This document shows, piece after piece, positions 11,374-14,107 of a stretch of DNA of 15,032 nt. The position numbers and the translations under genes are program-made. The stretch's first letter is position 1. Every line of letters begins with the position of its first letter. Source of the DNA: a virus. Its lineage: Duplodnaviria; Heunggongvirae; Uroviricota; Caudoviricetes. The notes beneath the pieces are model-generated. The model saw nothing but the letters and a program-made list of their open reading frames with translations, had not been told where the DNA came from and did no database searches. The stretch covers positions 1 through 15,032 of the IMG/VR virus record IMGVR_UViG_2563366979_000002; one strand, given 5' to 3'.

Positions 11374-12831
11374 TTATTTGACGTAAATGTGGTTTCTGTA
11401 TTTGACAAAAATCACATCACACACGCTTTCAATATCTTCAGGTTGACCATAAATTTTCTTCACAATATTCAATTGTTCTTTATTCTCAAGAATAAAGAAA
11501 TTATTTCCTTTGTTATACCATTCGCTATTTGTAAGCCAGTTATCTCTTTTTATTTCATTGTTATTAAAAAGTATATTTGCTATTTTTATGTCTCCATTCA
11601 CACCAACAGAGTTAGTAAATGTGAAAGGGGCATATCCATAATTTGCTTTGTGCTCGTTGATTTTTTCTCTAATACATGACATCTGATTGTATCTATTATC
11701 AGTGGAGCCATTAATATTTATTGTTTTAATTCCTGATATTATACCCAAAAAAGCTATTAATAAAATAATGCTTTTTTTATTAAATTTAGATCTTGACAAA
11801 AGAATTACTGCCATAATGAAGACGGGAACAAGGTATCTTATTGTCCATATATTTCTTGGGAGGTTACTACCAATATAAGCAGATGTCATGATTAAAATAG
11901 ACAATGACAAACATATATCAATAACGCTTCTGTTTTTAAAAAGATTTCTGAAAGTGAAGTAAATTAATGCAACAACACCAGCAAAGCGTATTGCTTTAGA
12001 TAATAGATGCAGTGATGGTGTTATTTGCTCACCAAATATGTTTGCATTAAAAAACAATAAAGTTCCGCTTACTGCAGTATTTATATTAACTAAAATATTG
12101 TCATACTCAACAATCTTTACATCTGTTAGTCCTGGCAATGTAAAGCTTCCAAGGTTTAAAAACAAAAAACCGATCGCCTTGGAAATTAAATATGAAGAAA
12201 ACAATCCAGCCATTATAATAAGGTATTTCTTTTTTCTTTCCTTGTGCAACAAAAATATTGCTGCTAATGTTAGCGGTGCAACGTATATATAGACTGAGAT
12301 ATTATCGCTAAAAATAGCCATAGAGGATAGTATGGTTGAAAAGTATACAAATAATATATTTTCTGTTTTAATATACTTTTCTGTAAATATTAAGCATCCA
12401 ATGATAAATATGTATGTACCCATGTGAATGCACGCTGAAAGCATTGATGTAACAGCCATGTCAGCAGGGAAAACAAAGTAGAATATAATTAGCGCTAATG
12501 CTAATGATTTATTTGTAGACAGCCTGTATATCAAAAATATCACAGTAGCATACATCGCTGGTGGTATTATATATGCAAGCTCACTGCTGTAGCCAAATAA
12601 TATAGAGGCGATCGCATAAAAAGATACTTCTGTAAAGTAAAAAGGAACCGTGGATAGCATCCATCCATGAAGTAAGTAATTACCTTCTGACATATCCTTA
12701 CCAAGCAAAAGCACTGTTGCCGCATCTGTATTTGGTGGGAATATGTTTAAGCTGGCAAAGTGATATAGCATAAACAATGACGCAAATAATAAAATCACGA
12801 ATATAAATTTAATTTGTTTTTTGAAAATCAT
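11374..12831 (-). CDS. Serotype-specific O-antigen glucosyltransferase (GtrC-type), polytopic membrane protein
   Basis: 485-aa ORF, very hydrophobic with many predicted TM segments; strongly AT-rich; sits directly downstream of gtrA-gtrB with a TAATG stop/start overlap, the canonical position of the type-specific gtr gene. Confidence 0.75.
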   Translation of the reverse strand: MIFKKQIKFIFVILLFASLFMLYHFASLNIFPPNTDAATVLLLGKDMSEGNYLLHGWMLSTVPFYFTEVSFYAIASILFGYSSELAYIIPPAMYATVIFLIYRLSTNKSLALALIIFYFVFPADMAVTSMLSACIHMGTYIFIIGCLIFTEKYIKTENILFVYFSTILSSMAIFSDNISVYIYVAPLTLAAIFLLHKERKKKYLIIMAGLFSSYLISKAIGFLFLNLGSFTLPGLTDVKIVEYDNILVNINTAVSGTLLFFNANIFGEQITPSLHLLSKAIRFAGVVALIYFTFRNLFKNRSVIDICLSLSILIMTSAYIGSNLPRNIWTIRYLVPVFIMAVILLSRSKFNKKSIILLIAFLGIISGIKTININGSTDNRYNQMSCIREKINEHKANYGYAPFTFTNSVGVNGDIKIANILFNNNEIKRDNWLTNSEWYNKGNNFFILENKEQLNIVKKIYGQPEDIESVCDVIFVKYRNHIYVK

Positions 12832-13748
12832 TATTTATTACCCTTTAATATATACTTTGGACGCTGCTTAACCTCAACGTAGATACGCCCTATGTACTCA
12901 CCTAGCACTCCAATCCCAATTAACTGGATGCCGCCAAGAAATAATATTGATACAAGAATTGAAGGGTATCCAGGTACATTATTACCAAAAATTAATTTAT
13001 CAATTATCATCCATGAACCGTATGTAAATGATATACATGCAATAAATAACCCAATATAGGTCCACATGCGAAGCGGGAATGTTGAGAAGCTAGTGATCCC
13101 TTCCAGCGCCAAGTTCCATAGCTTCCATCCATTGAACTTTGTGCTTCCTGCAACGCGTTCTGCTCGCGCATATTCTACGACATCGGTTCGACCACCAACC
13201 CAGCTCAGCACACCCTTCATAAACAGGTTTCGTTCTGGCATGAGCTTAATATTTTCTACTACTTCGCGAGACATGAGCCGGAAGTCGCCAACATTCTCTT
13301 CTATCTGAGGGTTGCTGATTTTGTTATGAAGTTTATAGAACCACTCAGCAGATTTACGCTTCAGCCTGCTGTCAGTGGAGCGGTCAGAGCGTTTAGCCAG
13401 AACCATATCTGCACCGGCCTGCCATTTCTCTATCAAGTGAGGAATAACTTCGATAGGGTCTTGCAGATCAACGTCAATCGGGATAATTGCCTCCCCGGTA
13501 GCATGGTCCAGACCTGCGAACAGGGCGGGTTCTTTGCCGAAGTTACGTGTGAACGACAGCGAAACCACAAGCGGGTCGGCAACAGCGAGCTCGTTGATTA
13601 TTGATTCTGTAGCGTCTTTGCTGCCATCGTTTATGAAGACTATCTCGACTTCATGCTGCTGAAGCCCTTCAAATTCGCGCACAGTTTTATAAAAAATAGG
13701 TATCGTGGCCTCTTCGTTAAAGACCGGAACGACTAAAGAAATTTTCAT
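12831..13748 (-). CDS. gtrB: Bactoprenol glucosyltransferase GtrB (GT2 family)
   Basis: 305-aa ORF; N-terminal GT2 motifs ([24 protein letters not shown]) and two C-terminal TM helices, typical of GtrB/YfdH. Confidence 0.9.
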
Positions 13749-14107
13749 TTCGCATCCCTAAAGACAATGAACTTTGAATAGACGAAACCGCACACCAGGC
13801 TGATGGCGGAGAAGGTGACAAGAGTTATCATCGGGGGAAGTGCGCATCTATCAGCAGCCCATCCAACAGTAGCACTGAGTGTTCCCATGAACCCGACATA
13901 TAACATGTAGCGCATCGTTGTAGTTGATGCTTTGAATGTGAATTTTGCATTCGCGAAGAAGCTAAAACTCACAGCCACAACGAAACCTGCGAAGTTTGCC
14001 AGAGCCTGATTGGTATGCGCGGCATAGATACATACACCAAAAACCACCCAGTGTATAAGTGTGTTCAGCACACCAATCGAGGTGTACCTTGCAAATATAT
14101 TTAACAT
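13745..14107 (-). CDS. gtrA: GtrA flippase (bactoprenol-linked glucose translocase)
   Basis: 120-aa ORF with four hydrophobic segments; ATGA overlap with gtrB; GtrA-like size and arrangement. Confidence 0.88.

Follow-up and report, generated by a model that had tools for sequence, protein, structure and literature searches.

The window examined here is the whole stretch of 15,032 nucleotides (nt) at positions 1 to 15,032 of the IMG/VR virus record IMGVR_UViG_2563366979_000002 (Caudoviricetes), and the element under study is a three-gene operon in it. Three intact open reading frames lie on the minus strand: gtrA (13745-14107, 120 aa), encoding a small membrane protein and putative flippase of undecaprenyl phosphate-linked glucose (Und-P-Glc); gtrB (12831-13748, 305 aa), encoding a GT2 bactoprenol (Und-P) glucosyltransferase; and a third gene, gtrC or gtr(type) (11374-12831, 485 aa), encoding a type-specific transferase of GT-C fold in a GtrI-like family. 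Their coordinates, strand and lengths are exactly those claimed in an earlier note on this DNA, and the tight coupling described there was also seen: ATGA (13745-13748) contains both the gtrA stop and the gtrB start, and TAATG joins the stop of gtrB to the start of the third gene, with a one-base overlap at 12831. The third place is taken by an AT-rich, variable membrane-transferase gene that is swapped as a cassette, and the operon has a temperate-phage location adjoining an att site, with int at the other prophage end. The locus is a complete canonical gtrA-gtrB-gtr(type) operon of the serotype-conversion kind known from Shigella, Salmonella and E. coli, and the window is a 13.1-kb deletion remnant (1331-14465) of a roughly 40-kb SfV-like phage with a lambda integration module.

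The identities given to the first two genes were borne out by profile searches. GtrA matched PF04138 (E 2e-13) and, over its full length, phrog_2224 'GtrA-like O-antigen conversion' (E 2.7e-69); it is WP_000931964.1 of sister prophages at 100% identity, and is 86-87% identical to GtrA of phages SfV, SfI and SfIV. GtrB matched PF00535 (E 2.8e-30) and the PHROG GtrB profile (E 2.4e-177), shares 87-88% amino acid identity with GtrB of phages SfV, SfI, SfII and SfIV, and can be aligned over its whole length with Synechocystis GtrB, whose structure is solved (5EKP; E 2.3e-89), the DxD-type motif IPID(V/A)DLQDP of the two proteins included.

For the 485-aa protein, searches of Pfam, NCBIfam and PDB sequences (phmmer, plus a profile for PDB) returned no meaningful match, and tblastn against 50,697 phage records gave none at E 1e-5, because GtrI is too distant for a database of that size. 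Literature searches on its RefSeq accession and on the serotype of strain G4/9 found nothing. A word-indexed search returned only three clusters, from E. coli (99%), Salmonella arizonae (87%) and Enterobacter hormaechei (52%). An exhaustive HMMER profile search of a 50%-identity library yielded 1241 family representatives at E<=1e-3, and the best-scoring members listed were mostly full length (about 480-530 aa). Named carriers of the family belong to Escherichia, Salmonella, Enterobacter, Serratia, Citrobacter, Pseudomonas and Lonsdalea. A family alignment was built from 73 representatives, and the same 73 were fed to AlphaFold to model the 485-aa protein. None of the 73 matches a Pfam glycosyltransferase family; PF14264 (Glucos_trans_II), which does match GtrII and the KK05-19 allele, matched neither the 485-aa protein nor any of these relatives, and no Pfam or NCBIfam model covers this GtrI-like GT-C family.

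The link to a known serotype-converting enzyme came from GtrI. The earlier note had proposed a comparison with the Gtr transferases, allowing that the protein might resemble none of them; direct BLASTP against S. flexneri GtrI gave 25% identity over 426 aa (E 9e-8), the family profile scored 123 bits on SfI GtrI, and hhalign, at 99.4% probability (E 3e-21), produced a 449-column alignment that spans the two. D36, which stands directly after the first transmembrane helix (2-30), is invariant in all 73 family sequences and corresponds to an Asp in the aligned GtrI; H136, D176 and R332-Y333 are nearly invariant, and D36, H136, D176 and R332 are all matched in GtrI. Two closer relatives occur on the same phage backbone as the window, both at att-lambda: the third gtr protein of enteroaggregative E. 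coli (EAEC) 042 (O44:H18), with 31% identity over its full length (E 3e-77), and the allele of strain 2013C-4282, with 32%. At 25-32% identity to GtrI, the 042 protein and the 2013C-4282 allele, the window allele is, as judged by its sequence, distinct from all three.

The structural model agrees with this placement. It consists of an N-terminal bundle of more than eight membrane helices and a C-terminal soluble domain, is superposable on known GT-C enzymes, and has the conserved acidic residue D36 in the predicted first extracytoplasmic loop. Structure matches were to GT-C enzymes, including ArnT, PglB and Pmt; a Foldseek search against the BFVD viral structures gave a best match of only E 1e-3 and TM 0.49. 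Loops rich in Lys and Arg (196-203, 296-302 and 347-352) would, by the positive-inside rule, put D36, D176, the 227-273 loop, R332 and the C-terminal domain in the periplasm. The gene product that public records call 'hypothetical' is a GT-C enzyme of a GtrI-like family that has no Pfam model.

Comparison with sister prophages whose third genes are different showed where the variable part of the operon begins and ends. These are 98-99.5% identical to the window up to 11224-11234 and again from 12813-12833, and the breakpoints mark the third gene and about 150 nt downstream (11226-12831) as a discrete exchangeable module. Nine nucleotides past the third-gene stop, on the minus strand, begins a hairpin with a 13-bp perfect stem and no U-tract (11325-11365); its RNA fold reaches -24.8 kcal/mol (z -5.0), none of 200 shuffles was as stable, and it was not called as a canonical intrinsic terminator. 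The hairpin travels with the exchangeable cassette.

The base composition of the third gene (GC 0.307, GC3 0.288) departs from that of gtrB (0.444), gtrA (0.455) and the tail module (0.567), so the AT-richness pointed out in the earlier note is real. All nine other type-specific gtr genes checked have a GC content of 28-35%, and low GC, being common to every one of them, is nothing special to the gene for the 485-aa protein.

On the other side of the operon, the upstream (promoter/leader) region of gtrA (14108-14236, minus strand) is common to other gtr phages. Homology extends to 14236 with an argW-integrated sister prophage and to 14227 with SfV, SfI, SfII and SfIV, and a second junction, between gtrAB and the att/int module, lies at about 14236. 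Phase-variable gtr operons of Salmonella carry, in many cases, a signature of four GATC sites in OxyR half-sites upstream of gtrA (PMC3688519). In the window a single GATC (14162-14165) was found between gtrA and attR (14108-14450), and Dam/OxyR phase variation of the Salmonella type was rejected on that ground.

Relatives of the third protein recur beside gtrA/gtrB-like genes in mutually unrelated genomic contexts: in S. arizonae (87%), Enterobacter (52% and 33%) and Serratia (33%), at a fliT-fliE site (33%), and on a metagenome contig where the genes are ordered differently (27%). This conserved adjacency to GtrB and GtrA suggests that the 485-aa protein uses a polyprenyl-phosphate-linked sugar donor. 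Farther out in the family, a GtrB homolog lies 4 kb from the family member in three Pseudomonas species, and no GtrB homolog was found within 5 kb of it in three Lonsdalea species. Comparing the third gene with its Salmonella ortholog gave a ratio of nonsynonymous to synonymous substitution rates (dN/dS) of 0.165, and comparing it with the argW allele gave 0.12, values that indicate purifying selection on the gene.

To which O-antigen the allele belongs was addressed through its distribution. Among 5426 complete E. coli genomes, the third-gene allele is present in 14, and 14 complete genomes have the same tail-gtr block at argW, together with IntS; the wzx/wzy pair of the O17/O44/O73/O77/O106 group is found in 94. 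At least 10 of the 14 allele carriers are among these 94 (EcPF15, CE0007a, HYM1, PS_131_S11, AST262, AST217, PRO_A-1401, PRO_A-1490, strain 135 and G4/9), an overlap with a hypergeometric P of about 1e-15, uncorrected for clonal relatedness. According to published work, a single backbone and a single gene cluster are common to the five serogroups, and only glucose branches, which gtr genes located outside the cluster add, set them apart (PMC10304059, PMC7685785). Because at least 10 of the 14 carriers have that cluster, their common backbone, Man-Man-Man-GlcNAc (mannose and N-acetylglucosamine), is the probable acceptor. The earlier note stated that specificity cannot be deduced from sequence alone; the linkage is indeed not readable from the sequence, and the host association narrows the acceptor down to this backbone.

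Within this O-group one and the same phage backbone is found with at least four alleles of the third gene, and with either of two integration modules, lambda att or argW/IntS. At argW, the O17 reference strain K12a has a GtrII-like (PF14264) allele, WP_000561375.1; strain 042 (O44) carries a GtrI-like allele of 491 aa, and strain 2013C-4282 another GtrI-like allele. The window allele differs from that of 042 and from the argW allele of the O17 reference strain. For O44, two papers place gtrA, gtrB and a gene named 'wbbG' in a prophage between ybhB and ybhC (PMC10304059, PMC7685785), and prophage 042p1 of EAEC 042 was described as carrying gtrAB and Ec042_0853 at a 15-bp repeat (PMC2808357). 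A gtr operon in an SfV-like prophage at the E. coli att-lambda site is thus already published; new here are the GT-C/GtrI-like assignment, the distinct allele, its probable O77-group acceptor, and the survival of an intact cassette in a prophage that has otherwise mostly been lost.

The resemblance to 042p1 is extensive. The two share the ybhC-ybhB site, the 15-bp lambda core repeat, the gene order, an SfV-like tail module (97.6% nt identity) and gtrB (99.2% nt identity), and their third genes encode members of the same protein family. They differ in their third proteins, which are only 31% identical (491 against 485 aa), and in completeness: 042p1 is a full prophage of 40.8 kb, and in the window a remnant of 13.1 kb is left after deletion. 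Phage SfI resembles the window in its tail module (97.6% nt identity over 5.3 kb), in an operon adjoining attP, and in GtrA and GtrB (87%); its GtrI is a full-length homolog of the 485-aa protein with D36, H136, D176 and R332 conserved, but the identity is only 25%. The SfI integrase, however, is of the P22/SfV type and not of the lambda type, and the O-antigen backbone of its S. flexneri host differs from the O77-group backbone. With 25% identity and a host backbone unlike that of S. flexneri, the specificity of GtrI is not transferable to the 485-aa protein, and the low identity (25-32%) to both GtrI and the 042 protein leads us to expect a different acceptor position or linkage.

Other known systems are more remote. 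GtrII, GtrIV/YfdI, GtrV and P22 GtrC occupy the same operon slot with a similarly low GC content (28-35%) and are assumed to do the same job, but none is detectably related in sequence to the 485-aa protein; GtrII and P22 GtrC belong to PF14264, and GtrIV and YfdI to another group. Solved GT-C enzymes (ArnT 5F15, AglB 3WAJ, PglB 5OGL, Pmt4 and ALG12) share 8-11% identity with it and no sequence-level match, and their acceptors differ, being lipid A, protein or lipid-linked oligosaccharide. The Salmonella gtr operons of P22 and SPI-16 share the three-gene architecture and the phage association (PMC3688519) and differ from the window in the number of GATC sites upstream of gtrA.

Our reading, which we hold with considerable confidence, is that a complete serotype-conversion operon, kept by selection, lies here next to attR in a decayed SfV-like prophage, and that it glucosylates O-antigen. 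In the proposed mechanism GtrB, a GT2 enzyme, would transfer glucose from UDP-glucose to undecaprenyl phosphate at the cytoplasmic face, and GtrA would move the resulting Und-P-Glc to the periplasmic leaflet. The 485-aa protein, with its GT-C fold, a C-terminal alpha/beta domain that is presumably periplasmic, and the conserved residues D36, H136, D176 and R332, would then act in the periplasm and transfer glucose from Und-P-Glc to a single defined sugar in the O-antigen repeat. By analogy with the gtr family, a change of serotype and the exclusion of superinfecting phages would be expected to follow.

Several observations weigh against this reading. All public copies of the 485-aa protein are labelled 'hypothetical protein', and GtrII, GtrIV, GtrV, YfdI and P22 GtrC scored only 0.2-11% in hhalign and at most 14 bits with the family profile, although the heterogeneity of the type-specific slot is notorious and unrelated Gtr types are therefore normal (PMC3688519). 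The association with the O-group rests on argW copies in other genomes and not on copies at att-lambda, and several of the 14 carriers are clonal relatives. A sigma-70 consensus scan upstream of gtrA found no strong site and the prophage is heavily decayed, so that expression of the operon there is presumptive. These last points would also fit an inert relic, untranscribed in its decayed prophage or facing a host O-antigen that is no substrate, and having no phenotype. About two thirds of the prophage genome is gone, xis carries a frameshift, and the deletion joint cuts into two genes; E. coli K-12, which makes no O-antigen, retains an analogous yfdGHI operon in the cryptic prophage CPS-53. 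We nevertheless regard an inert operon as unlikely: its three reading frames are intact and dN/dS is 0.12-0.17, the allele is tightly tied to one O-antigen backbone, the region upstream of gtrA is conserved with active serotype-converting phages, and 99.98% identity over 10.3 kb links the window to a sister locus (L034) that retains the tape-measure, tail-tube and sheath genes.

Activity on a different substrate was also considered, with the third protein acting on enterobacterial common antigen, lipopolysaccharide core, capsule or a periplasmic protein, or transferring a sugar other than glucose. GT-C enzymes serve many acceptors, as the matches to ArnT, PglB and Pmt illustrate; members of the wider family in Pseudomonas and Lonsdalea lack an adjacent gtrA, and for Salmonella GtrC families II and IV no O-antigen change was demonstrable (PMC3688519). 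Set against this are the homology to GtrI, itself an O-antigen glucosyltransferase, the 87% identity of GtrB to S. flexneri Und-P glucosyltransferases, the strong enrichment of the allele in genomes with one O-antigen cluster, and the fact that this O-group varies only by glucose side branches (PMC7685785, PMC13188871), so that another acceptor or sugar appears very improbable. Some genes in the gtrC position encode acetyltransferases (PMC4413052), and the third gene might accordingly be an O-antigen acetyltransferase like Salmonella GtrC family II or BTP1 GtrC; a weak Acyl_transf_3 match was seen in one of the 73 aligned representatives, a distant family member. The GT-C fold of the 485-aa protein effectively refutes that explanation, to which we give next to no weight.

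It is quite possible, though slightly less likely than not, that the window allele determines one of the glucose branches that separate serogroups within the O17/O44/O73/O77/O106 group, for example a branch of O73 or O106, or of an unrecognised variant. Genoserotyping by wzx/wzy cannot split this O-group, since the transferases that tell its serogroups apart are encoded elsewhere than in the O-antigen cluster (PMC13188871). Were the proposal true, the group would be typable in silico from the alleles of the gtr third gene, and the window allele would mark a third state beside the GtrII-like allele of K12a (O17) and the 491-aa allele of 042 (O44); tying each allele to a structure would close the genoserotyping gap. 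The group includes extraintestinal pathogenic E. coli of sequence type 69 and a recent haemolytic uraemic syndrome outbreak lineage, and side-branch glucosylation alters serotype, antibody recognition and sensitivity to O-antigen-dependent phages. In other respects the locus is a textbook gtr cassette. The GtrI-like GT-C family, which comprises over 1200 clusters at 50% identity and is covered by no model in Pfam or NCBIfam, would merit a family definition.

The prophage in which the operon resides is delimited by two copies of the 15-bp lambda att core, GCTTTTTTATACTAA, attL at 1331-1345 and attR at 14451-14465 (both on the plus strand), an exact direct repeat for which 0.03 copies would be expected in the window by chance. 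Outside it, on the minus strand, lie the two chromosomal genes that border the lambda attachment site in E. coli: ybhC (1-1284; 427 aa, Pectinesterase family, annotated as ybhC in E. coli 2013C-4282) and ybhB (14556-15032; 158 aa, PF01161, beside bioA in E. coli genomes). The minus strand next to attL encodes an intact lambda-type integrase of 356 aa (1419-2489), with matches to PF00589 and PF09003 (lambda Arm-DNA-binding domain) and with about 96% nt identity to the int region of lambda, followed by a frameshifted xis pseudogene (2470-2684), in which lambda Xis residues 1-33 and 31-72 are read in two frames and no reading frame is intact. With xis frameshifted while int is intact, the remnant is probably locked in place.

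A deletion joint at about 4652-4690 fuses a minus-strand early gene, an N-terminally truncated dATP/dGTP-pyrophosphohydrolase/DUF551 gene (4274-4651), to a plus-strand DNA-circularisation gene (4729-5970). The latter is 5'-truncated and matches DNA_circ_N only from profile position 27 of 88. The SfV/Mu-like baseplate and tail-fibre module on the plus strand (4681-10980) starts inside this truncated gene, ends with an intact tail-fibre assembly gene (10576-10980), and is 97.6-99.5% identical in nucleotide sequence to SfV, SfI, SfII, SfIV and many E. coli prophages, with 97.6-97.7% for the four Shigella phages; baseplate/tail-fibre genes and the gtr operon are the only survivors of the late side, the genes that L034 retains having been deleted. 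The earlier note had described the operon as cargo at the lambda b-region position. Lying between the tail-fibre genes and attR, it does occupy an analogous place, which is the standard gtr position in SfV-type phages; the phage itself, however, is SfV/Mu-tailed with a lambda int/att module, and is not lambda. Outside this record, assembly GCA_000352345.1 is 100% identical to the window over 1374-15032.

Three minor observations concern genes around or related to the operon. A 4.5-kb contig (JAEXAX010000025.1) from a metagenome-assembled genome labelled 'Bacillota bacterium' encodes GtrA and GtrB 96% identical to those of E. coli together with a third gene of the 2013C-4282 type, and is probably a mis-binned Enterobacteriaceae contig. 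In the early-left region of the prophage, a stretch of 35-38% GC contains a minus-strand gene for a PerC-family activator homolog of 104 aa (3462-3776; PF06069, E 8.5e-15), possibly a second moron; regulators of the PerC/Pch type control virulence loci of enteropathogenic and enterohaemorrhagic E. coli. Just downstream of the intact tail-fibre assembly (tfa) gene lies an inverted tfa fragment (~10952-11080, minus strand), which is a pseudogene in sister prophages and which, by analogy with the two opposed tfa genes of SfIV, may be the vestige of an invertible host-range segment.

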